DNA of 64,000 bases from Clostridia bacterium (GTDB lineage Bacteria; Bacillota; Clostridia; TANB77; CAG-508), in the NCBI GenBank assembly GCA_017626365.1, contig JAGAIV010000036.1, positions 31,104 through 95,103 on the forward strand, read 5' to 3'. Under the pieces are notes generated by a model, which was given only the letters and a program-made list of their open reading frames with translations, made no database searches and was not told where the DNA came from. This document shows, one piece after another, positions 8,996-53,979 of the stretch (the stretch's first letter is position 1; every line of letters starts with the position of its first letter). The translations under genes and the position numbers were made by a program.

Positions 8996-10231
8996 ATGGA
9001 ACTAAAGACAAAATACCAATATACGTATTTTATTTATCCATACATAATTCGCGAAAATAAGTATGATAAATATTTATTAAAATTATTAAATCATAAAAAT
9101 TGTAAAGTAAAATTCTTTGAAAAAGAAAAAGATATGGATTTATATACATACTTTTTACCTAAAATTAAAGAGTTTATGTTTCAAGGATTTGAATTTAGTA
9201 AAGATAAAATACGAAAGTTTGAAGAATTTAATAAAGAAATGCAAGCAATCATTCTATCTAGATATCCTGCTACGATATTTGAATACGATTTAGGAACAGA
9301 TATGCAAGGAAAAGCAGGAGAAGAAGAAGGAATATTCTTTCATATGCAAAAAATGCAAATAATATGTTTTAATACAGGAATTTGCTTTTTAGTAATGAAA
9401 ACAAATATTGAAGATAGTAATGATTTTCGAGATGTTTTAGACTTTAATTATAAATTTAGAGATATTTATTCAGAGCTAAATCAGTTAAAAAAATATGAAA
9501 ATATACGCTTACAAACTGCGACTTTTGGAGATGTAAAAAAATTAACAGATTTAATAAAAGAATTAACAGGGAATGTAGAAGATGCAAAAGCACTAAACAT
9601 TGATACAAACCGCTTTTTAACTTTTGCCTATACTTGTATAGAACAAGACGCTTGGAATGATGATAAACAATTTAAAGACATTGAATTTGAATTCTTTAAA
9701 TATGCTAATATTTTCCCAAGCTCTTACAAATCAAACTTTGATAAAAAACATATGGAAATACTTTCAAAATGGAAGTTTATTCGTACAGGATTTACTAAAG
9801 AAGGAGTAGGACTTTTAACTTCTAGCATTGATATTCATAATTACACAAAATTACCATACTTTTATGAAAATCAATACCTATACACCTATATCCTTGCACA
9901 ATACCAAAAAATATATTTAAAGAAATTAGAAAATGAAGCAAAAAATAAAAATATGACGCAACCAGCAAGGGAAAAATTCATAAAATTCACAAAAGAATTA
10001 TGGATAGGGGAAGTTACAAACGATGATGTAGGAACAAATATCTATAAAAAAACAAGACAAGTATGTGATGTACAAAAATTATATGAAGAAGTAAAAAATA
10101 AATTTGATATTGCCTATAAAGAGCTAAATATTGAAAAAGAAAGTAAAGTAAACAAAATTATTCTAGTAATACTAGGAATTTCTTTATTTCTAAATATAAT
10201 AAACTTTATAAGTTTATTAAATATGATGTAA
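8996..10231 (+). CDS. Hypothetical protein with a C-terminal TM anchor
   Basis: ORF with a good RBS (aagggag) and a C-terminal hydrophobic helix. No family recognised. Confidence 0.5.
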   Translation: MELKTKYQYTYFIYPYIIRENKYDKYLLKLLNHKNCKVKFFEKEKDMDLYTYFLPKIKEFMFQGFEFSKDKIRKFEEFNKEMQAIILSRYPATIFEYDLGTDMQGKAGEEEGIFFHMQKMQIICFNTGICFLVMKTNIEDSNDFRDVLDFNYKFRDIYSELNQLKKYENIRLQTATFGDVKKLTDLIKELTGNVEDAKALNIDTNRFLTFAYTCIEQDAWNDDKQFKDIEFEFFKYANIFPSSYKSNFDKKHMEILSKWKFIRTGFTKEGVGLLTSSIDIHNYTKLPYFYENQYLYTYILAQYQKIYLKKLENEAKNKNMTQPAREKFIKFTKELWIGEVTNDDVGTNIYKKTRQVCDVQKLYEEVKNKFDIAYKELNIEKESKVNKIILVILGISLFLNIINFISLLNMM

Positions 10232-10389
10232 GAACCCTCCGTCTCGCTTGCGCGAGCCACCTCCCTTAAATAAAGGAGGCTTTTCTCTATATTTCATAGA
10301 TACGACTACATGCTAGTGCTAAATTAAAATTAGTAGAGTAAAGGCCCCTTTACCTAAGGGGGCTGTCGCCGTTAGGCGACTGGGGGTTC
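10232..10389. repeat. Composite family-1 element: two inverted copies of the GC-rich unit at 10232..10280 and 10343..10389, flanking an AT-rich core
   Basis: The reverse complement of the left unit (gcctcctttatttaagggaggtggctcgcgcaagcgagacggagggttc) aligns with the right unit (ggcccctttacctaagggggctgtcgccgttaggcgactgggggttc). Each unit has two hairpins. Confidence 0.65.
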
Positions 10390-15264: not shown

Positions 15265-15273
15265 GAAATAATG

Positions 15274-15369
15274 TGTAGGGGTCAATGCCCTCATCGACCC
15301 GTTTTCGTGAAATGTATAGTATAACAATACAAATTTAAAAACGGGTCGACGAAGGCGTCGACCCCTACA
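15274..15369. repeat. Family-2 GC-rich palindromic element. Two inverted GTAGGGGTCGAC hairpins flank a 40 nt AT-rich core, inserted between the RR and HK genes
   Basis: tgtaggggtcaatgccctcatcgacccgtttt ... aaaacgggtcgacgaaggcgtcgacccctaca. The arms are reverse complements with a few mismatches. Confidence 0.65.
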
Positions 15370-15402
15370 TTTAAGATGAAAAAGATTTAAGGGGATAAAA
15401 AA

Positions 15403-18512: not shown

Positions 18513-19438
18513 TCTTGAAAGAAATAATAGGTGTAAGATTTAAAAGACCTGGAAAAATATATTTTTTTGACCCAAAACATTATAAAGTAAAAAAAGGACA
18601 ACATGTTATTGTAGAAACTCAAATGGGACAAGAATTTGCGGAAGTTGTTATTGAAAACAAATTGATTCCAGAAGAAAAAATAGAAAATGAATTAAAACCA
18701 ATTCTAAGAGTTGCAGGCTATAAGGATTATAAACACAATGAAGAAAATAAAGAAAAAGAAAAAGAAGCATTTGCACTTTGCGAAGAACAAATAAAAAAAC
18801 ATAAACTAGATATGAATTTAACAGATGTAGAATATAAATTTGATAATAGTAAAATATTATTCTATTTTACAGCAGATGGAAGAATTGATTTTAGAGATTT
18901 AGTAAAAGACTTAGCAGCTATTTTTAAAACAAGAATTGAACTTCGTCAGATTGGAGTAAGAGATGAAGTTAAAAGAATTGGCGGAAATGGTATTTGTGGA
19001 AGACAACTATGTTGTACATCTTTTTTACCAAACTTTGAGACAGTGTCTATAAAAATGGCAAAAGAACAAAATATTTCATTAAATCCATCTAAAATATCTG
19101 GAAATTGTGGAAGATTAATGTGTTGTTTAAAATATGAAGAAGAAGCATATCTTGATAAATTAAAAAAACTACCTAAAGTAGGGGCAATTGTAAAAGCAGA
19201 AGAAGATGGAGAAGGAATTGTAGATTCTGTAGAAATATTAAAAGAAAAAGTAAGAGTAAAATTCAAAGATAAAGAAGGATTCTATTACAAAAAATTTGGC
19301 GCTGAAGAACTAAAAATAATAAAAGACGTAGAAGAAAAAGACGAAATGGAAGGTGTAGACAAAGAAGAATTAAGAGAACTACGAAAACTAGAAAAATTAG
19401 AAGAAGAAGACAAAAAGAATCAAGCAGAAGATATGTAA
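18500..19438 (+). CDS. ricT: PSP1-domain protein (stage 0 sporulation YaaT/RicT-like)
   Basis: PSP1 C-terminal domain signature with a Cys-rich stretch (GICGRQLCC..GNCGRLMCC). The order holB-yaaT is conserved. Confidence 0.75.
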   Translation: MGGIILKEIIGVRFKRPGKIYFFDPKHYKVKKGQHVIVETQMGQEFAEVVIENKLIPEEKIENELKPILRVAGYKDYKHNEENKEKEKEAFALCEEQIKKHKLDMNLTDVEYKFDNSKILFYFTADGRIDFRDLVKDLAAIFKTRIELRQIGVRDEVKRIGGNGICGRQLCCTSFLPNFETVSIKMAKEQNISLNPSKISGNCGRLMCCLKYEEEAYLDKLKKLPKVGAIVKAEEDGEGIVDSVEILKEKVRVKFKDKEGFYYKKFGAEELKIIKDVEEKDEMEGVDKEELRELRKLEKLEEEDKKNQAEDM

Positions 19439-24525: not shown

Positions 24526-24566
24526 ATATTGAATAAACAATAAAGGTAAGATATAATAAAAACGAA

Positions 24567-24593
24567 TGTAGGGGTCGACGACCTCGTCGACCC
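24567..24593. repeat. Family-2 hairpin, single copy (E)
   Basis: tgtaggggtcgacg-acct-cgtcgaccc. Same core as 15274..15369. Confidence 0.6.
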
Positions 24594-24640
24594 AAAGATA
24601 CGAACAATATCCAAAACCTAAATTATAGGAGGCAATTCAA

Positions 24641-27452: not shown

Positions 27453-27476
27453 AAGAATACTAAAGTAGCTCCACGT

Positions 27477-27560
27477 GGCAATTGCACTTTTCTAAGCGTG
27501 CTTTAGTCGAGCGTGAAAAGTCCAATTGCCAGCAAGATGGAGCGGACTCACAGCAATAAA
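27477..27560 (+). repeat. Family-4 conserved element of about 85 nt, copy 1, between dapF and dapL
   Basis: ggcaattgcacttttctaagcgtgctttagtcgagcgtgaaaagtccaattgccagcaagatggagcggactcacagcaataaa. About 80% identical to the reverse complement of 53266..53348. Confidence 0.6.
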
Positions 27561-27578
27561 ATAGAAAGAGGAGATATT

Positions 27579-28811
27579 ATGATAACCATAAATGAAAATT
27601 ATTTAAAATTACAAGATAGCTACCTATTTTCAACCATTGCAAAAAAAGTAGCAAAATTTCAGGAAGAAAATCCAGATAAAAAGGTAATTAAACTAGGCAT
27701 TGGAGATGTAACCTTACCGATTGCTCCAGCTGTAGGAGAAGCAATAAAAAGAGCAACCGACGAAATGTTAAAAAAAGAAACATTTAGAGGATATGGACCA
27801 GAGCAAGGATATGATTTCTTAAGAGAAAAAATTGCAAAGCAGGATTATGAAAAAATAGGAGTTACAATAGACAAAGACGAAATATTTGTATCAGACGGAG
27901 CAAAATGTGATACGGGAAATATTGGAGAAATTTTTGGAACGGATAATATAATTGCAATTACTGACCCAGTTTACCCAGTATACCTTGATACCAACATCAT
28001 GGCAGGAAGAACGGGAAATTATGACAAAGAAACAGACAAATATGAAAAAGTAGTATATATGCCGGCAACAGCAGAAAATAACTTTACTCCAGAATTACCT
28101 AAAGAAAAAGTAGATATGATATATTTATGTTTTCCCAATAACCCAACAGGAACTGTCTTAAATAAAGACGAACTTGCAAAATGGGTTGCTTATGCAAAAG
28201 AAAACAAAGCCATTATTTTATTTGATGGAGCATATGAAGCATTTATTACAGAAGAAAACGTACCACATAGCATTTATGAAATAGAGGGAGCAAAAGAAGT
28301 TGCAATTGAATTCAGAAGTCTTTCTAAAACTGCAGGATTCACAGGAGTAAGGTGTGCCTATACAGTTGTTCCAAAAGAGCTAAAGGCATATACAAATTCG
28401 GGTGAAGAAATAAATTTAAATCGCTTATGGAATCGTAGACAATGTACAAAATTTAATGGAGTACCATACATAACGCAAAGAGCAGCAGAAGCGATTTACT
28501 CAGAAGAAGGACAAAAGCAAATCAAAGAAAACATTAATTACTACCAAGAAAATGCTAGCATTATATTAGAAGGATTAAAAGAAGCGGGCTATACTGTATT
28601 TGGAGGGAAAAATGCACCATACATTTGGCTTAAAGTACCAAACGGATATACCTCATGGGAATTCTTTGACTATCTACTAGAAAAAGCAAATGTAGTAGGA
28701 ACTCCAGGAGTTGGATTCGGACCAAGTGGAGAAGGATATTTCAGATTAACTGCTTTTGGTTCAAAAGAAAACACAATAGAAGCAATTGAAAGAATTAAAA
28801 ACTTAAAATAA
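27579..28811 (+). CDS. dapL: LL-diaminopimelate aminotransferase (DapL type)
   Basis: N-terminal (M)[23 protein letters not shown] plus a PLP-aminotransferase fold with the SKT lysine. RBS agaggag precedes the ATG at 27579. Confidence 0.8.
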
Positions 28812-29116: not shown

Positions 29117-30851
29117 ATGTTAAAAATACTAAAAAATCTAAAAAAGACTTGGGTCTCTGTTGTTATTATTGTAATTCTTCTATGTGTTCAAGCATGGGCA
29201 GATTTAGAATTACCAAGTTATACATCAAAAATAGTAAATATAGGAATCCAAGCACGGTGAAACGAATTACATATTAGAAGCAGGAATCCAAATGCTAGGA
29301 GTTGCACTTATTAGTATGATTTCAGCAATTAGCATTATGTTTTTATCGTCACGAGTAGCAGCAATGCTAGGGAAAACATTAAGGGATAAAGTATTTCAAA
29401 AAGTAATGGGATTCTCTGGGGAAGAGTTTAGTAACTTTTCTACTGCATCTTTAATTACCCGTAGCACAAACGACATTCAGCAAATTCAAATGTTAATTAC
29501 AATGCTATTTCGTGTAGTAGTATATGCTCCAATTATGGGAATAGGAGGATTTATCAGAGTATTAGCAAATAGTAATACTTCCATGGCTTGGATTATTGGA
29601 CTTGCAATTTTATGTGTTATAGGAATTGTATTAGTATTATTTATTGTAGCAATGCCAAGATTTAAAAAATTACAAGATTTTATTGATAAATTAAACCTTG
29701 TATCTCGTGAAATTTTAACAGGTTTACCAGTCATTCGTGCATTCCACACAGAAGAAAAAGAAGAAAAACGTTTCGAAGTTGCAAACCGAGATTTAATGAA
29801 AAATTATGTATTTGTCAATCGTGCGATGAGTATGATGATGCCAGCCCTAATGTTTGTTATGAATTCTATTATGCTATTAATCATTTGGGTTGGAGGGCAT
29901 AATGTAGACCAAGGTATCATTCAAGTTGGAGATATGATGGCATTTATACAATACACGATGCAAATTGTAATGAGCTTCTTAATGATTTCTATGATTTCCA
30001 TTATGCTACCACGTGCAGGAGTTTCAGCAAAACGTATTAATGAAGTATTAGAAACAAAACCAAGAATTGTTGACAAAGAAAATCCAAAGAAATTCGACGA
30101 AAGTAAAAAAGGATTGGTAGAATTTAAAAATGTATCATTCCGATATCCAGATGCCGATTCTGAATGTATTACAGATATAAACTTTGTGGCAAAACCGGGA
30201 GAAACAACAGCTATTATTGGAAGTACTGGTTCAGGAAAATCAACAATTGTTAATTTAATACCACGTTTTTATGATGTAACAGGAGGAGAATTACTAATTG
30301 ATGGTGTCAACATTAAAGAAGTACCACAAAAAGAACTAAGGAGTAAAATTGGATTTGTACCACAAAAAGGAATGCTATTTTCCGGTACAATAGAATCGAA
30401 TATTAAATATGGAAATCCCGAGATTAGCGATGAACAAATGGTAAAAGCAGCAAGGATTGCACAAGCAGAAGAATTTATTAATAATAAAGAAGAAAAATAC
30501 GATGCCCCTATTTCACAAGGTGGAACTAACGTATCGGGAGGACAAAGACAACGTTTATCGATTGCAAGAGCAATTGCTATTGACCCAGAAATATTGGTAT
30601 TTGACGATAGCTTTTCAGCATTAGATTTAAAAACAGACGCAGCCTTAAGGGCAGCTCTTGCAAAAGAAACCAAAAATAAAACAGTGATTATTGTAGCTCA
30701 AAGAATTAGTACAATTTTAAATGCAGATCAAATTATTGTACTAGAAGAAGGTACAATGGTAGGAAAAGGAACGCATGAAGAATTAATGAAAACATGTGAA
30801 GCTTACCGAGAAATTGCATTATCACAACTTTCAAAGGAGGAATTAGAATAA
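29117..30851 (+). CDS. ABC exporter (fused permease + ATPase), partner 1 of a heterodimer, interrupted by a +1 frameshift at 29255..29260
   Basis: The N-terminus MLKILKNLKKTWVSVVIIV..YTSKIVNIGIQAR* (track ORF 29060..29260) continues in the +1 frame as (G)ETNYILEAGIQMLGVAL.. (track ORF 29292..30851). Walker A GSTGSGKST is present, and the total of about 577 aa is typical. Confidence 0.7.
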
Positions 30852-32716
30852 TGGCACATATGAATCAAAAGAAACCTCCGATGGGAGGAATGGGACCAGG
30901 TCCAGCTCATGGAGGAGGACCTGCAGAAAAACCAAAAGATTTTAAAAACACAACTAAAAAATTAATAAAAAATTATTTGGCAAATTATAAATTTGCAATT
31001 GCAATTGTTATTCTATTTGCAGTAGGAAGTACAATCTTTTCCATTGTAGGACCAAAGATATTAGGAAATGCAACAACAGAAGTATATACTGGTATTATGA
31101 GTAAATTATCCGGTGGAGCAGGAATTAACTTTGAAAAAATTGCTGAAATTTTATTAACGTTATTAGCATTATATCTAATTAGTGCGTCATTTTCGTTTAT
31201 ACAAGGATTTGTTATGACAGGTGTTTCTCAAAAAATTACTTATCGACTTCGTAATGATATTGCTAGAAAAATAAACCGTATGCCAATGCATTATTTTGAT
31301 AAAAAAACACATGGAGAAGTATTATCCATTATTACAAATGATATTGATACCATTAGCCAAAATTTAAACCAGAGTATTACGCAAATTATAACATCAATTT
31401 GTACCATTATTGGAATTTTAATTATGATGTTTTCTATTAGCTGGCTTATGACACTAATTTCACTATTCATTTTACCAGTTGCAGCTTTTATTGTAAAAGT
31501 AATTGTAGGAAAATCCCAAAAATACTTCCAAGCACAACAAGAATATTTGGGTCATGTTAATGGTCAAGTAGAAGAAATATATGGTGGTCATACTATTGTA
31601 AAAGCATTTAATGGGGAAAAACAAGCGTTAGAAGAATTTGAAAAAGCAAATGATACCCTATATCATTCTGCATGGAAATCACAATTCTTGTCTGGCTTAA
31701 TTCACCCAGTTATGAACTTTGTGGGAAACATTGGATATGTAGCAGTAGCGATATTAGGAGGATATCTTGCTGTAAAAGGAAGAATTACCGTAGGAAATAT
31801 TCAATCATTTATCCAATATAATAAACAATTTACCCAGCCAATTAACCAAATTGCACAAGTATCAAGCATGCTTCAAGCAATGGTAGCAGCAGCTGAAAGA
31901 GTATTTATTTTCTTAGAAGAGCCAGAAGAGGTACAAACAAGTGATAATAAAGTATCAACAAAAGACTTAAAGGGAAATATTACGTTTGACCATGTTATGT
32001 TTGGATATGATGATGACAAGATTATTATTCACGACTTTAATGCCAAAGTAAAAGACGGGCAAAAAATAGCAATTGTCGGACCAACAGGAGCTGGAAAAAC
32101 AACAATGGTAAAATTACTAATGAGATTTTATGATGTAAATAGTGGTGAGATTTTAATTGATGGTCATAACATTCAAGATTTTGACCGTGGAGAACTTCGT
32201 AAAATGTTTGGAATGGTATTACAAGATACATGGTTATTTGGTGGAACCATTAAAGATAATATTAAATATGGAAAACCAGATGCAACCGATAACGAAGTAA
32301 TCGAAGCTGCTAAGGCAGCACATGTGCATCACTTTATCAAAACACTTCCAAAATCTTATGACATGGTAATTGGAGAGGAATCAAGCAATATTTCAGCAGG
32401 GCAAAAACAATTAATGACTATCGCAAGAGTTATCCTAACAGACCCCAAAATTCTAATACTAGACGAAGCAACCAGTTCCATCGATACCAGAACCGAACAA
32501 CAAATTCAATCAGCAATGGATAACTTAATGAAAGGAAGAACCAGCTTTATTATTGCACACCGTTTATCTACAATCAGAAATGCAGATTTAATATTAGTAA
32601 TGGACCATGGAGATATTGTTGAACAAGGAACTCATGATGAGTTACTTGCAAAAGATGGATTTTATGCAAAATTATATAACTCACAGTTCGAAGAATGTGA
32701 GGATGAAATAGAATAA
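30851..32716 (+). CDS. ABC exporter (permease + ATPase), partner 2
   Basis: Six TM helices plus an NBD with Walker A GPTGAGKTT, the signature LSGGQ-like SAGQKQ, and Walker B ILILDEATS. Confidence 0.85.
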   Translation: MAHMNQKKPPMGGMGPGPAHGGGPAEKPKDFKNTTKKLIKNYLANYKFAIAIVILFAVGSTIFSIVGPKILGNATTEVYTGIMSKLSGGAGINFEKIAEILLTLLALYLISASFSFIQGFVMTGVSQKITYRLRNDIARKINRMPMHYFDKKTHGEVLSIITNDIDTISQNLNQSITQIITSICTIIGILIMMFSISWLMTLISLFILPVAAFIVKVIVGKSQKYFQAQQEYLGHVNGQVEEIYGGHTIVKAFNGEKQALEEFEKANDTLYHSAWKSQFLSGLIHPVMNFVGNIGYVAVAILGGYLAVKGRITVGNIQSFIQYNKQFTQPINQIAQVSSMLQAMVAAAERVFIFLEEPEEVQTSDNKVSTKDLKGNITFDHVMFGYDDDKIIIHDFNAKVKDGQKIAIVGPTGAGKTTMVKLLMRFYDVNSGEILIDGHNIQDFDRGELRKMFGMVLQDTWLFGGTIKDNIKYGKPDATDNEVIEAAKAAHVHHFIKTLPKSYDMVIGEESSNISAGQKQLMTIARVILTDPKILILDEATSSIDTRTEQQIQSAMDNLMKGRTSFIIAHRLSTIRNADLILVMDHGDIVEQGTHDELLAKDGFYAKLYNSQFEECEDEIE

Positions 32717-36206: not shown

Positions 36207-36947
36207 ATGAGTAACAAACTATTAGAAATAAAAGATTTATATGTAAATGCAGAGGATAAAGAAATTTTAAAAGGAATTAATTTAAGCATTAATAAAGGAG
36301 AAATCCATGTTATTATGGGACCAAACGGTTCTGGTAAAACAACAACAGCAAATGCTATCTTAAATAATCCTATTTATACAAAACAAAAAGGTAGTATTGA
36401 ATTTGAAGGACAAGATATTACAAACTTAAAAACAGATGAAATTGCAAGAAATGGAATCTTTATGTCTTTTCAATTGCCAGAGGAAATCCCAGGAGTTTCT
36501 GTAACGAATTTCTTAAAATATGCCAAAAACAAAGTAACAGGAAAACCAGTAAAAATATTTGAATTTAAGAACGAACTAAAGAAATATATGGAAGAGTTAA
36601 ATATGAATCCGAAAAATATGGAAAGAAGTTTAAATGTTGGATTTTCTGGTGGAGAAAAAAAGAAAAATGAAATTTTACAAATGCTAGTGTTAAATCCAAA
36701 ACTTGCTATATTAGATGAAACCGATTCCGGACTTGATGTTGATGCTATCAAAACGGTATCTAAGGGAATTGAAATGTTTAAAAACAAAAAGAATGCTGTT
36801 TTAATCATTACCCATAATACTAAGATTTTGCATAGCTTAAAAGTTGATTATGTACATGTTTTAGTAGACGGAAAAATCGTAAAAACAGGTTCACAAGAAC
36901 TAGCAAAGGAAATCGAAGAAAACGGTTACGCCAAATATAAACAGTAG
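36207..36947 (+). CDS. sufC: Fe-S cluster assembly ATPase SufC
   Basis: MSNKLLEIKDLYV..GPNGSGKTT. RBS aaggaa precedes the ATG at 36207. The track start 36123 is a GTG overlapping the upstream regulator gene. Confidence 0.85.
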   Translation: MSNKLLEIKDLYVNAEDKEILKGINLSINKGEIHVIMGPNGSGKTTTANAILNNPIYTKQKGSIEFEGQDITNLKTDEIARNGIFMSFQLPEEIPGVSVTNFLKYAKNKVTGKPVKIFEFKNELKKYMEELNMNPKNMERSLNVGFSGGEKKKNEILQMLVLNPKLAILDETDSGLDVDAIKTVSKGIEMFKNKKNAVLIITHNTKILHSLKVDYVHVLVDGKIVKTGSQELAKEIEENGYAKYKQ

Positions 36948-36953
36948 AGAAAA

Positions 36954-36997
36954 GGCCCATTTACTTAAGGGGGCTGTCGCGAAGCGACTGGGGGTTC
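36954..36997 (+). repeat. Family-1 GC-rich element, single unit B
   Basis: ggcccatttacttaagggggctgtcgcgaagcgactgggggttc. Confidence 0.65.
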
Positions 36998-43775: not shown

Positions 43776-45518
43776 ATGAAAAAAATACTATCAAAGATAA
43801 TTAAAAAATATTGGTTTGCAATATTGATGCAAATTATATTTATAGGATTAAACATTTATTTTCTAACATATCCACCTAAAATTATAGGAAATATTGTTGA
43901 TTTGTTATATAACGTAGAAGAAAACCGTAATGCAATTATGATGCAAATATGGTACTTGTTAGGAATTTGTGTTGTTTTGCTTGCTGTTCGTATGCCATGG
44001 AGATGGCTTACAGGGTATACTCCAAGAAGTATAGAAAGAGATTTAAAAGATAAACTATTTGAACAATTTATGAGAATAAAAATGACAAGTCTTCAAAACA
44101 TAAAAAATGGAGAACTTATGTCATATTTTGTAAAAGATATATCAGAAATTAGACAATTCATTTACCGTTTATTATCTTATGGAACAAGATTTGTATTCAC
44201 AGTAATTATTGCAACTTATGCAATGATGAGTGGTGTCAATGTTAAATTAACATTAGTAACATTATGTCCGATTATTGTAACAATTTTTTTAATTATAAAA
44301 ATAAAAGAATATGTAGAAAGCAGTTTTCGTAAATCACAAAAGTATTTTACGGAATTATCTGAATACGTACAAGAAAGTACAGATGCGATTCGTACAACAA
44401 AAGCATATACTGGTGAAATGAACCAATTAAAAGAATTTATTAGGAAAAATCGCAAATTAAGAGAGGCAAATAATGCAGTAGATGTGCATTCTACTTTACT
44501 TTCTACATGTCTTAATATATGTTTTGGTTTATGTTATGGTATTTCATTATTATATGGCTCTAAATTAGTATTAGAAGGAACTATCACGACAGGAGATTTT
44601 GTAGCATTTAATGGATATATTGGATTATTTGTAGGACCAGTAACTTGGCTTCCAGGAATTATTTCAAGATACAAAAGAGCAAAACTTTCTTACCAAAGAC
44701 TAGATAATGTATTTAGTCTAGAAAGAGAAAAAATAAATGTAAAAACAGAAGATAAAGAGGATGATTTTAAGGGAAACATTGAAATTAAAGACTTAAGTTT
44801 TAACTATCCAGAAAATATAGAAATGGTATTAAATCATATTAATCTAAAAATAAATAAAGGAGAAACTCTTGGAATTATTGGAACCATAGGAAGTGGAAAA
44901 ACAACACTTATGAATTTATTGTTACGCCTATATCCTGTACCAAATGGAAAAATTCAAATCGATGGAAAAGACATTAATGATATACCTTTATTAACATTAA
45001 GAAAGCATATTTGCTATATTACACAAGATAATTTCTTATTTTCAACATCATTAAAAGAAAATATAAAATTATTTAAAGAAGGGATTGAAGATGAACAAAT
45101 AAAAGAAAGTACAAAAAATGCTATGATATATGATGATATTGAAAAGATGCAAAATGGTATTGAAACCATTATCGGAGAAAGAGGAGTTGACCTATCTGGT
45201 GGACAAAAACAAAGAGTAGTGATATCAAGAGCGTTCCTAAATAAAAGTAAAGTTGTTATTTTTGATGATACTTTCTCAGCATTAGATAATAGAACTGAGC
45301 AGATGGTATTAAATAATGTGAAAAAATTAGTAAAAGATAAAACTTGTATCATTATTTCAAATCGTATATCTGATATTAGAGATGCAGATCAAATTATCGT
45401 ATTAGATGGTGGAAATATTATTGAAAGTGGAACACATGAAAGCTTATTAAAAGAACAAGGAAGATACTACAATTTTTACAAAGAACAAACAGCAAAATCG
45501 CAAATGGCTTTAAACTGA
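43776..45518 (+). CDS. ABC exporter (permease + ATPase), partner 1 of a second pair
   Basis: TM domain plus an NBD with GTIGSGKTT, LSGGQKQR and IFDD. Confidence 0.8.
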   Translation: MKKILSKIIKKYWFAILMQIIFIGLNIYFLTYPPKIIGNIVDLLYNVEENRNAIMMQIWYLLGICVVLLAVRMPWRWLTGYTPRSIERDLKDKLFEQFMRIKMTSLQNIKNGELMSYFVKDISEIRQFIYRLLSYGTRFVFTVIIATYAMMSGVNVKLTLVTLCPIIVTIFLIIKIKEYVESSFRKSQKYFTELSEYVQESTDAIRTTKAYTGEMNQLKEFIRKNRKLREANNAVDVHSTLLSTCLNICFGLCYGISLLYGSKLVLEGTITTGDFVAFNGYIGLFVGPVTWLPGIISRYKRAKLSYQRLDNVFSLEREKINVKTEDKEDDFKGNIEIKDLSFNYPENIEMVLNHINLKINKGETLGIIGTIGSGKTTLMNLLLRLYPVPNGKIQIDGKDINDIPLLTLRKHICYITQDNFLFSTSLKENIKLFKEGIEDEQIKESTKNAMIYDDIEKMQNGIETIIGERGVDLSGGQKQRVVISRAFLNKSKVVIFDDTFSALDNRTEQMVLNNVKKLVKDKTCIIISNRISDIRDADQIIVLDGGNIIESGTHESLLKEQGRYYNFYKEQTAKSQMALN

Positions 45519-45534: not shown

Positions 45535-47289
45535 ATGAAGAAAAATAAAAATCATACATTAGCGCATGTTTTAGAAATGGCAAAGCCCCATAAAAAAACA
45601 ATTATTATCGTTACCATTCTTTCATTGTTAATTAACATAGGGGAGATTTTAAAACCATATTTAATAAAAATTGTAATGGATGATTACTTAAGCCAAGGCA
45701 TTTTTCAAAAAGGAATGATTACAATTGGGATGATAGGGGCAGCATACATAGGAATTGTAATTTTGGGTAATATTATCGATTTTATTGCAAGCACTGCAAC
45801 GAATATGATGGGAGAAGATATTATCTATACTATGAGAAACCGCCTATTTAAATACACACAATATGCAAATATTTCATTTCATGACCGTACACCAGCAGGA
45901 AAATTATTTGTAAGAATTACCAATGATGTAGAAGATATTTCTAGCTTATTTAAAGATGTTATAACAACATTTTTTAAAGATATGATATTAATTGTTGCAA
46001 TAGTTAGTATTATGATTTACTTTAGTGCTAAATTAAGTTTATTGTCTTTTATCGTTATACCATTTATTATCATATTTTCTGTTGTACTTACAAAAATACT
46101 AAACAAAATTTACGATAAAGCAAAAGCAATTAAAACAAAATTAAATACATTTTTAGCAGAATCAATTTATGGTGCAAAACTAATCAAAATATTTAATATT
46201 CAAAAAGAAAAACAAGAAGAATGCGAAAATCTAACACATAGTTTTAGAAATTCAAGATTACCAGGTGGAATTATTGAAGGACTACTTCCGGCACTAATGA
46301 CAATATTAGAAAATGTAGCAATCAGTATTATAGTATGGGCAGCAGTTAATAATGTAGTTGGGCAAAGCTTAGATGTTGGTTTAATATATGTATTTATAAC
46401 ATATATTAAGCAACTATTTGAACCAATTACAAGAACAATTGATAATATAGAAACCGTACAAGAAGCATTTGTATCGATTAATAAAATATATAAAATATTA
46501 GACAATAAAGAATACTTAGAAGATTTAGATTCTGGTATGGAATTAACAAATGTAAAAGGTCGTATTGAATTTAAAAATGTATGGTTTTCCTATGATAATC
46601 AAAAATGGGTACTAAAAAATGTTAGTTTTACAATAGAACCAGGACAAAGTATTGCATTGGTAGGAAAAACAGGATGTGGAAAAACGACGATTACAAACCT
46701 AATCAATCGTTTCTATGAGATTCAGCAAGGTGAAATTTTATTAGATGGAGTAAATATTAAAAACATCAATAAACGAAGCTTAAGACAGCATATTGGTATC
46801 ATTTTACAAGATCCATTCATTTTTGCAAGAAGTATTAGAAGTAATATAAAACTAAACAATTCTGACATTACAGAAGATGATATTATAAATTCCGTAAAAT
46901 TATCTTCTGCAGAAGACTTTATTTCATCACTCCCAAATGGAATCGATGAAGTGGCAAAAGAAAGAGGTTCATCATTCTCAGCAGGACAAAAACAATTACT
47001 AGCATTTGCAAGAATATTTGCACATAACCCATCCATTTTTATCTTAGATGAAGCAACAGCAAATATCGATACCCATACAGAACAATTAATTCAAAAATCA
47101 ATCGATATCATCTCTACAAAAAAGACATCAATCTTTATTGCACATAGATTAGCAACTATTGTGAATGTAGATAAAATTATTGTACTAGATGCAGGAGAAA
47201 TTGTAGAAATGGGAAATCATGTAGAACTTTTAAAAACAGGGGGATACTACAGTAAGTTATATAACTCATATTATGCAAGTTTAAATTAG
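45535..47289 (+). CDS. ABC exporter (permease + ATPase), partner 2
   Basis: GKTGCGKTT, SAGQKQL and ILDEATA. Confidence 0.8.
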   Translation: MKKNKNHTLAHVLEMAKPHKKTIIIVTILSLLINIGEILKPYLIKIVMDDYLSQGIFQKGMITIGMIGAAYIGIVILGNIIDFIASTATNMMGEDIIYTMRNRLFKYTQYANISFHDRTPAGKLFVRITNDVEDISSLFKDVITTFFKDMILIVAIVSIMIYFSAKLSLLSFIVIPFIIIFSVVLTKILNKIYDKAKAIKTKLNTFLAESIYGAKLIKIFNIQKEKQEECENLTHSFRNSRLPGGIIEGLLPALMTILENVAISIIVWAAVNNVVGQSLDVGLIYVFITYIKQLFEPITRTIDNIETVQEAFVSINKIYKILDNKEYLEDLDSGMELTNVKGRIEFKNVWFSYDNQKWVLKNVSFTIEPGQSIALVGKTGCGKTTITNLINRFYEIQQGEILLDGVNIKNINKRSLRQHIGIILQDPFIFARSIRSNIKLNNSDITEDDIINSVKLSSAEDFISSLPNGIDEVAKERGSSFSAGQKQLLAFARIFAHNPSIFILDEATANIDTHTEQLIQKSIDIISTKKTSIFIAHRLATIVNVDKIIVLDAGEIVEMGNHVELLKTGGYYSKLYNSYYASLN

Positions 47290-47458: not shown

Positions 47459-47611
47459 ATGTATACAGATACTATAATCGAACAAGTCCAATTAAAGACA
47501 CTGTAATACTAATAGAAAGAACCACTAATGCTATATCCTTCTTGATAATATATATTGCGTTTTATAAAAATATATAGTATAATAATAGCAGATTAAAAAT
47601 GGAGGAAAAAC

Positions 47612-52757: not shown

Positions 52758-53247
52758 AACTAAACATAGCACCAACAGCACCAAATACTCCGAAGGAAGC
52801 AAGTCCCATAATGATACCTGCTAGAATAACACCAGACATAACAGCTATTACACTCTTTTTAAAATCCATATCTAAAAAGCTTGCAGCAAGCGTTCCTGTC
52901 CAAGCACCTGTGCCAGGAAGTGGGATTCCAACAAAAAGGAATAAAGCAACATATAAACCGCGTCCTGCAGTTTCTTGTAATTTCTTACCACCTTTTTCAC
53001 CTTTTTCTAAACAAAAAGTAAAGAATTTTCCGATGAATTTCTTATCTGCACCCCATTCTAATACTTTTCTTGCAAAGAAAAAGATGAATGGAACAGGAAG
53101 CATATTTCCGATAATACAAGTAATATAAAGTGGTAGTAGTGGGAGAGGGTCACCAAAAGCTTGGCTTAATCCAATAGGTACAGCTCCTCTAAGTTCAATA
53201 AGTGGTACCATAGATACTAAAAAAACGATCAAATATTTTTTAAACAT
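52756..53247 (-). CDS. COG2426-like small polytopic membrane protein (putative small multidrug export family)
   Basis: Four TM helices. RBS taggagg precedes the ATG at 53247. The track start 53301 is an upstream in-frame Met inside the leader. Confidence 0.6.
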   Translation of the reverse strand: MFKKYLIVFLVSMVPLIELRGAVPIGLSQAFGDPLPLLPLYITCIIGNMLPVPFIFFFARKVLEWGADKKFIGKFFTFCLEKGEKGGKKLQETAGRGLYVALFLFVGIPLPGTGAWTGTLAASFLDMDFKKSVIAVMSGVILAGIIMGLASFGVFGAVGAMFS

Positions 53248-53265
53248 AAAAATCCTCCTAAAAAT

Positions 53266-53348
53266 AGTTACTGCTATGAGTTCGCCAAATCTTGCTGTCA
53301 ATTGGACTTTTCACGCTTGACTAAAGTACGCTTGAGACATGTGCAATT
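53266..53348 (-). repeat. Family-4 conserved element of about 85 nt, copy 2, in the 5' leader of the COG2426 gene
   Basis: Minus-strand sense is ..ttaattgcacatgtctcaagcgtactttagtcaagcgtgaaaagtccaattgacagcaagatttggcgaactcatagcagtaa.. Confidence 0.6.
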
Positions 53349-53400
53349 AACATGTTTGGCTACTTATTTGCTACATTTTACTATACGAAAATAAAAAAGT

Positions 53401-53979
53401 CTATAATTCTACAAAAGAATTTTTGATATTAAGAAAGATGTCTTGATATTTTTCCATGTTATCTGTTACGACTTCAAAGTTAAGTACATATAAGTTTGTA
53501 TCGGTTTCAATCCATACAACATTGGAATAAAAATCTTTTCCATAAGAAGAATCGGAATGTACAAATTTGTATTCATAGGATTTGTAGTTTCCAATAGTAA
53601 ATGGAATGATGCCAGAGTCATCTTGTATATTTTGTTTTTCTTTTAAATAGTTTTCTTTATCATCTACTACAATTTGGTATAAATCAATTTCGCGAGATTT
53701 TGAAATTTTAGTTGCATAGAAAAACATTTCATCTTGATTAGAATATAAATCAATTGCAAAATCATTATTTTGGCTTTGATTGATTTGGTAACGAATATTA
53801 GATGGAAAGTTAATTTCAAAACTTCCATCACTTGCCGTAATAGTGCTATAAGTTACATTCTTGTTTTGAAAAACAAAGAATATGCAACTAAAGACAAGGA
53901 TAACTAAAATAGCAACAGCAATACCGATACTAATATAAATATATTTCTTTTTTGTATTTTCCATAAACTTACCTCCCAT
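53401..53979 (-). CDS. Hypothetical membrane-anchored extracytoplasmic protein
   Basis: N-terminal TM helix. RBS ggaggtaag. Confidence 0.5.
   Translation of the reverse strand: MGGKFMENTKKKYIYISIGIAVAILVILVFSCIFFVFQNKNVTYSTITASDGSFEINFPSNIRYQINQSQNNDFAIDLYSNQDEMFFYATKISKSREIDLYQIVVDDKENYLKEKQNIQDDSGIIPFTIGNYKSYEYKFVHSDSSYGKDFYSNVVWIETDTNLYVLNFEVVTDNMEKYQDIFLNIKNSFVEL

Follow-up and report, generated by a model that had tools for sequence, protein, structure and literature searches.

Two related intergenic elements in the window

The DNA analysed here is a 64-kb stretch (hereafter, the window) of metagenomic sequence from an uncultured 'Clostridia bacterium', with a GC content of 30%. It contains two similar elements, c1 and c2, each ~98 nt long and with no ORF inside (Table 1). 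The gene 5′ of c1 encodes DapF (TIGR00652) and the gene 3′ of it encodes DapL (TIGR03542, 634.7 bits), while c2 precedes the gene of a PF06695 'Sm_multidrug_ex'/COG2426-type membrane protein. Both copies have the orientation of their downstream gene, as given in the first-pass annotation of this DNA, and the profile matches confirm the neighbours named there. The same annotation had proposed a likeness of about 80% over about 85 nt, which our alignment of 27477-27560 (+) with the reverse complement of 53266-53348 reproduced (69/86 positions identical, 80%). The length was set too short, since the likeness reaches ~14 nt further in the 5′ direction and starts at the heptamer AAGTAGC, located at 27463 in c1 and at 53364 in c2. 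The longest exact block common to both copies, the 19-nt AGCGTGAAAAGTCCAATTG, occurs twice in the window, at 27510-27528 (+) and 53299-53317 (-), where shuffled sequences predict 0.02 occurrences. Using a covariance model (R1), we obtained 104.6 bits for c1 (E ~1e-24, over 27458-27556) and 95.9 bits for c2 (over 53271-53370, minus strand).

Table 1. Coordinates of c1, c2 and their adjoining features in the window
Feature	Position	Strand	Remarks
c1, core-only repeat	27463..27560	+	126-nt dapF-dapL spacer
c1 P1, 5′ strand AGU.GCUCCA	27464..27473	+	partner 27538-27548, UGGAGC..ACU
c1 P2, 5′ strand UGGCAAUUG	27476..27484	+	partner 27523-27531, CAAUUGCCA
c1 apical segment AAGCGTGCTTTAGTCGAGCGTG	27494..27515	+	holds AGCGTG-N9-AGCGTG; specific to the window subfamily
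c1 CAGCAAGA, asymmetric internal loop	27530..27537	+	3′ side, between P2 and P1
dapL RBS AGAGGAG and ATG (27579)	27568..27581	+	8-20 nt 3′ of c1
PF06695-gene RBS AGGAGG (53259-53254) and ATG (53247-53245)	53245..53259	-	directly 3′ of c2
c2, core-only repeat	53267..53364	-	5′ leader of the PF06695 (COG2426-type) gene
c2 CAGCAAGA loop	53290..53297	-	
Promoter-like TAGACT-17-TAAAAT	53375..53403	-	5′ of c2; promoter scan

Neither nhmmer nor the covariance model with its filters off found copies other than c1 and c2 in the 64-kb window. Both searches were also silent near 47478, where a shorter echo of the element, AAGTCCAATT, had been noted; as this is a mere 10-mer, we regard it as a chance match. 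The scan of the window against Rfam 15 gave no match at gathering thresholds, nor did the surroundings of c1 yield one at E<=10, in agreement with the first-pass annotation, which had not recognised the element as any Rfam family.

Other repeats are present in the same DNA. A weak covariance-model match at 15265-15372 corresponds to a different palindromic repeat. This second, GC-richer palindromic family with GTAG...CTAC-type ends and a REP-like look is represented by a 96-nt hairpin with 32-nt arms, TGTAGGGGTCAATGCCCTCATCGACCCGTTTT / AAAACGGGTCGACGAAGGCGTCGACCCCTACA, at 15274-15369 and by a short version, TGTAGGGGTCGACG..., at 24563-24602. A 48-nt direct repeat (10322-10369 and 36933-36980, 85% identical, AGTAGAG.AAAGGCCC.TTTAC.TAAGGGGGCTGTCGC) contains a GGCCCC...GGGGGC hairpin and may represent a third small intergenic repeat or a terminator family. 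An apparent 78-nt repeat of 60-74% identity (30714-30791, 32573-32650, 36834-36911, 45375-45452 and 47158-47235) was rejected as a non-coding element based on Pfam matches: it is coding, and the similar stretches encode the conserved C-terminal portion of the ATPase domain in five paralogous ABC-transporter genes.

A covarying palindrome with an invariant internal loop

RNAalifold predicted a nested hairpin common to c1 and c2. In P1, three adjacent compensatory pairs distinguish GCUCCA/UGGAGC of c1 from GCCAAA/UUUGGC of c2, where the whole stem reads AGU.GCCAAA/UUUGGC..ACU. The c2 version of P2, UGUUAAUUG/CAAUUGACA, is likewise compensatory with respect to UGGCAAUUG/CAAUUGCCA of c1. The c1 RNA folds with an MFE of -33.7 kcal/mol (z = -3.6), and the folding energy of c2 is not distinct from that of its shuffles; this difference is explained by the inner stem extension, P3, which is weakened in c2, while P1 and P2 are kept. 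The 16-bp stem described in the first-pass annotation was recovered in the folding of c1, but the claim that it is lost from the second copy, leaving conservation at the level of sequence only, does not hold: just the inner part of that stem is gone, the compensatory changes keep the rest, and covariation becomes strong once further family members join the alignment.

This larger alignment comprised eight distinct copies fitted to a covariance model. In it, 93.3% of the cells pair and 10 of the 23 pairs change on both sides; none of 500 shuffles reached the observed covariation score, and pairing fell to 27%-47% when the 3′ partner was slid. Pairing and covariation so far above the shuffled and slid controls indicate that the hairpin is maintained. 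P2 covaries in every subfamily (UGUUAAUUG/CAAUUGACA, UGUCGGUUG/CAACCGACA, UGGAGGUAG/CUACCUCCA and UGGAAGCA/UGCUUUCA). The stem mismatches are symmetric between the strands, with 6 G.U versus 6 A.C, and in the youngest subfamily the P2 of L056b is perfect, while L040a and L040b each carry single uncompensated mutations. Symmetric mismatches together with uncompensated decay are as would be seen in a DNA palindrome copied from palindromic masters. Thus, the equal numbers of G.U and A.C lend no specific support to selection on the sense RNA, and covariation with this symmetry suits a DNA palindrome equally well.

The most conserved part of the element is the internal loop. CAGCAAGA is unpaired and shows 100% pairwise identity in all five subfamilies, with flanking stems that are 56-69% identical. 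Judging from this pattern, the CAGCAAGA core could be constrained through the binding of a transposase or host factor and, less probably, through an RNA function. The consensus sequences of a K-turn, a hammerhead (GAAA...GUC) and an outward-facing sigma-70 promoter were compared with the core by inspection, and none appeared to fit.

The apex differs from the loop in this respect. The first-pass annotation had pointed to the direct repeat AGCGTG-N9-AGCGTG as a possible protein-binding site, and a transcription factor acting on this DNA operator could, in principle, control both genes. The repeat is exact in c1 and carries one mismatch in c2 (AGCGTA-N9-AGCGTG). Nevertheless, it occupies the apex, where the element is least conserved; the apex of L007a is a plain U/A hairpin in its place, and that of the L040 copies is partly kept (CGTGCTTTAG). 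Both L007a and L007b lack the direct repeat and the L040 copies have half of it, which leaves a protein site at AGCGTG unsupported. Additionally, the segment is placed downstream of the promoter-like box in c2. When the inner c1/c2 segment CTTTAGTCNAGCGTGAAAAG, which is the subfamily-specific and least conserved part of the element, was compared with 185,579 species genomes, the six matches obtained were all chance matches in unrelated, mostly coding DNA. We consider control through such an operator very improbable.

Diverged copies, empty sites and target-site duplications in relatives

We fetched homologues of the PF06695 protein (87-92% identical) and of DapL (84-89% identical) with their surrounding DNA. 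The element is absent from the orthologous PF06695 sites of L007, L012-L018 and L063-L066 and from the orthologous DapL sites of L028-L035. In L063/L064, the closest relative (same synteny, PF06695 protein 92% identical), the promoter-like box, GAATTATAGACTTTTTTAT..TATAGTAAAAT, is preserved together with the RBS/ATG; the leader has a 67-nt spacer with conserved flanks, from which the ~100-nt element is missing. The presence of this box in an element-free relative places c2 within the presumed 5′ UTR. At the other locus, the 67-nt dapF-dapL spacer of L028 holds a different, GC-rich palindrome and no c1-type element, and that of L030 holds unrelated sequence at the place of c1 (DapL 88% identical for L028 and L030). 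The GC-rich sequence of L028 (~9930-9990, TGTAGGGGCACC...GTGCCC) resembles the GC-richer palindromic family of the window. Conversely, the site of L007b, at a conserved RNase T promoter, is empty in the window. These filled and empty sites are compared between species, at 88-92% amino-acid identity, and not between strains. In L007 (GCA_948630815.1), a different 166-bp element with perfect 33-bp TIRs, TAAAATGATGTAAGTGTTTATTTTTATTAATAT, is located at 9795-9960, 5′ of the PF06695 orthologue; as this leader holds the 166-bp element in L007, c2 in the window and nothing in L063, it looks like an insertion hotspot.

Copies of the family were found elsewhere. With a profile of the two window copies, nhmmer gave a weak match in the acpS leader of L007/L008 (GCA_948630815.1). 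The P2 of this copy, L007a (UGGAGGUAG/CUACCUCCA), is wholly different in sequence and perfect in complementarity, and the copy has kept the blocks ACGUG, GCAC, GUCC, AGCAAGA and GCGGACU. Covariance models R1 and R2 located a second, more diverged copy, L007b, before an RNase T-like exonuclease gene of the same organism; a further weak match, at 1691-1780 of L007, lies inside a coding region and was dismissed as chance. A search pattern built on the conserved blocks matched the known copies only among the local sequences; in the JGI metagenomes, it retrieved one more low-GC organism (L040/L041/L045) and eight high-GC chance matches. This organism (L040/L041/L055/L056) has one copy before smr; the covariance models added a second full copy between PNP and ligA, which is also found in strains L055 and L056, and a third, decayed one ahead of a DUF1292 gene. 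The Pfam matches confirmed the neighbouring genes (Smr, NAD-dependent ligase, ACPS, RNase_T and DUF1292), which have no function in common with DapL or PF06695. The search of relatives suggested in the first-pass annotation, with the downstream genes listed, yielded copies in two further organisms, and those genes proved to be unrelated.

The sample of the family amounts to ~8 distinct copies from 3 organisms, at densities of two copies in the 64 kb of the window, two copies and a chimeric relative in 20 kb of L007, and two copies and a decayed one in 9.4 kb of L040. The chimeric relative (L007 ~18590-18750, plus strand) has the ends of the L040 form, TTCAGGCTAACATT...AATTAGCGC and GGGAGCGGACT...TAGTCTAAACAGTAAC, around an unrelated core with a 19-bp A/T stem; it adjoins a terminator and is antisense to both neighbouring genes. 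On viral contigs, a relaxed block pattern selected eight loci, none of which was confirmed by the covariance model, and BLAST of the elements against plasmid and phage collections gave no match. Rfam searches at E<=10 with the L040 and L007 copies returned noise only, far below the gathering score. The family is rare, with no true match for CTTTAGTCNAGCGTGAAAAG in the 185,579 species genomes and one organism in the JGI metagenomes; given that Rfam and the plasmid and phage collections hold no match, it has probably not been described so far.

The full-length form is represented by L040a and L040b, both 143 bp long, with 15-bp TIRs (GTTAMWRYTCAGACY) that are imperfect in both copies. L040a ends in GTTAATGCTCAGACC / AGTCTGAACTGTAAC and is flanked on both sides by the exact 8-bp TSD ATTGAATT; L040b ends in GTTACTATTCAGACC / GGTCTGAACATTAAC, with GAATAAGC as the exact 8-bp TSD on both sides. 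In DNA of this composition, the probability that an 8-mer recurs by chance at a given position is ~9e-5 for each copy. When L040b and one copy of its TSD were removed from the sequence, a 14-bp bidirectional terminator hairpin, AAAAAAGATGTAG-AATAAG-CTACATCTTTTTT (-15.3 kcal/mol), was restored directly 3′ of the PNP stop codon, indicating that this copy was inserted into a terminator loop. At the same PNP-ligA site, strains L055 and L056, which are 98% identical, are both filled; homologues of PNP at 77% identity (L057-L062) have no copies, and a strain-level empty site for L040b was not found among L055-L062. In L007b, the outer inverted repeat, AATTCACAG/CTGTGAATT, is 9 bp long and perfect, and the 8-mers on either side agree in 7/8 positions (ATAAAGTT/ACAAAGTT); this copy is located 3′ of a conserved TTTACA-17-TATAKT box and 5′ of the exonuclease RBS. 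The full-length transcript is predicted to form one long hairpin of -38 to -48 kcal/mol. Termini (TIR/P0) differ between subfamilies. The pattern GTTANNNYTCAGAC occurs in the fetched loci at the ends of these MITE-like elements only, apart from isolated single matches.

In the window itself, c1 and c2 consist of the inner palindrome P1-P3 only, with no recognisable TIR, and no TSD was found around c1, c2 or L007a; we therefore infer the mobility of the window copies from their relatives. The fact that there are just two copies in the 64-kb window, neither with a TSD, would also suit the recent copying of one leader by segmental duplication inside this genome, with neither mobility nor a wider family. 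This seems highly improbable to us, since homologues of the same architecture occupy unrelated loci in two other organisms and since the 20% divergence of c1 and c2, with its clustered compensatory changes, is unlike that of a recent duplication.

The relatives also bear on the possibility that dapL (synthesis of lysine and peptidoglycan precursors) and the PF06695 gene form one regulon, with c1 and c2 as a common riboswitch or another leader that senses a signal. Both window copies are in sense orientation just 5′ of an RBS, and their fold is conserved, as such a leader would require. Nevertheless, the element is missing before the dapL and PF06695 orthologues of every relative examined, the other copies precede acpS, the exonuclease gene, smr, ligA and the DUF1292 gene, and related copies carry TIRs and TSDs. 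Additionally, no terminator-like sites were found near c1 or c2, the MFE fold of c1 leaves the dapL RBS unpaired, and no expression platform (terminator/antiterminator or RBS sequestration) was recognised at the window copies; Rfam was silent even at E<=10. We regard a common riboswitch as improbable in the extreme. The first-pass annotation had also decided against a riboswitch, in favour of a protein-binding site or a young dispersed repeat. Its conclusion on the riboswitch stands, although the reasoning from a lost stem does not, and of its two alternatives it is the dispersed repeat that is borne out, by empty orthologous sites and by diverged copies at unrelated loci, some of them with TIRs and 8-bp TSDs.

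Interpretation and comparison with known elements

Taken together, these results make it likely, in our judgement, that c1 and c2 belong to a dispersed, MITE-like palindromic family and are neither a riboswitch nor an operator nor the mark of a dapL/PF06695 regulon. As copies of a scattered repeat, they do not constitute a dedicated switch for these two genes. The family is found in a small group of gut Clostridia that are uncultured and low in GC, and the whole element is a nested imperfect palindrome, P0-P1-P2-P3. The 15-bp TIRs and the 8-bp TSDs imply mobilisation in trans by a putative transposase of the DDE type. The copies occupy intergenic, AT-rich DNA, in many cases with a promoter on one side and an RBS on the other. 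The window copies are shorter, core-only derivatives and, lacking a recognisable TIR or TSD, are probably old or immobilised insertions. Presumably, c1 is transcribed in the dapF-dapL message and c2 in the PF06695 leader; there, they would be carried passively as a stable hairpin with no terminator. Any effect on the expression of dapL or the PF06695 gene, through mRNA stability or RNase III processing, would be incidental to presumably neutral insertions and would not respond to a signal.

Some properties of the family argue against this reading. The ends of a DDE-type MITE are normally its most constrained part, and an invariant internal loop with covarying stems and variable ends is unusual for such an element. 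The co-orientation of five of the six informative copies with their flanking genes and the invariance of CAGCAAGA next to variable ends are each compatible with some selected function. The core could be a structured module with a function of its own, made of RNA or single-stranded DNA (e.g., a small ribozyme, a leader that binds a protein, or an element for processing or stability). A MITE would contain or spread this module, which would act in cis on the downstream gene. In addition to the pairing and covariation above the shuffled and slid controls and the contrast of the loop with its neighbouring stems, two independent insertions, c2 and L007b, lie exactly between a conserved promoter-like box and an RBS. 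On the other hand, the mismatch symmetry (6/6) gives no sign of selection on a sense RNA, young copies decay with no compensation, and the downstream genes are functionally unrelated. The orthologous sites show no conservation, L007b has kept neither the GCAC/GUCC inner motif nor the apical loop, the chimeric relative is antisense to its neighbours, and Rfam holds no matching family. On balance, we consider a functional module of this kind unlikely. Its more specific form, in which the core with CAGCAAGA would be a portable 5′-UTR element (the site of an RNA-binding protein or nuclease, or a catalytic or processing motif) distributed by the MITE, appears to us quite unlikely; if true, each insertion would rewire gene expression, for instance that of dapL and the PF06695 gene.

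Reading c1 and c2 as MITE-like insertions guards against annotating the repeat as a new riboswitch or dapL regulon, and it documents an unannotated family in uncultured gut Clostridia with insertions between promoter and RBS and inside terminator loops. Insertions at either kind of site can alter gene expression between closely related species. The CAGCAAGA loop offers a concrete starting point in the search for the transposase or host factor by which the element would be recognised.

Prokaryotic MITEs have been described as elements of <500 bp with TIRs of 4-30 bp, located in AT-rich intergenic DNA, with hairpin-forming transcripts and direct repeats that fade with age (PMC10969869). Among them, QMITE2 of Coxiella burnetii has direct repeats of 7-9 bp, TIRs of 23-29 bp and a hairpin-forming core, and SPRITE, BOX and RUP are also named (PMC10969869). 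The family described here resembles MITEs in being short and non-coding (143 bp at full length), with 15-bp TIRs in its full-length copies, AT-rich intergenic sites and one long predicted hairpin, and in having exact 8-bp direct repeats in young copies that are lost in older ones. Its copies are dispersed at unrelated loci, and empty sites are found between related genomes. In contrast to a typical MITE, its termini vary by subfamily and its internal loop, CAGCAAGA, is the most conserved part.

The Correia/NEMIS elements of Neisseria and the RUP, BOX and SPRITE elements of Streptococcus pneumoniae are whole-element palindromes of ~100-150 bp that insert beside genes. They become part of 5′ or 3′ UTRs by co-transcription, can mimic terminators or be inserted into them, and influence expression incidentally. 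They differ from the present family in generating TA or other short duplications instead of 8 bp and in their hosts, Proteobacteria and streptococci, and they are not known to share sequence with it.

REP/BIME elements, which depend on RAYT transposases, and the PATEs derived from IS200/IS605 are hairpin-forming extragenic repeats whose stems drift while complementarity is kept; REPs and PATEs are not known to generate a target-site duplication, and their subterminal hairpins are recognised as single-stranded DNA. Many copies of the present family similarly begin near a GTAG-like motif (AGTAGC). Unlike REPs and PATEs, L040a and L040b have TIRs at their very ends together with exact 8-bp TSDs, which points to a DDE transposase; an assignment to the IS200/IS605 type or to REPs, for which the GTTAC tips and a 5′ motif similar to GTAG might speak, was rejected on account of these exact duplications.

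Finally, c1 shares with the DAP/lysine leader RNAs its location in the 5′ leader of a DAP-pathway gene, its sense orientation and its covarying fold. The lysine riboswitch (Rfam RF00168) is a multi-helix junction, whereas the present element is a single hairpin of ~100 nt with no Rfam match and no expression platform, and, unlike the riboswitch, the family is not found at orthologous genes and precedes unrelated ones.
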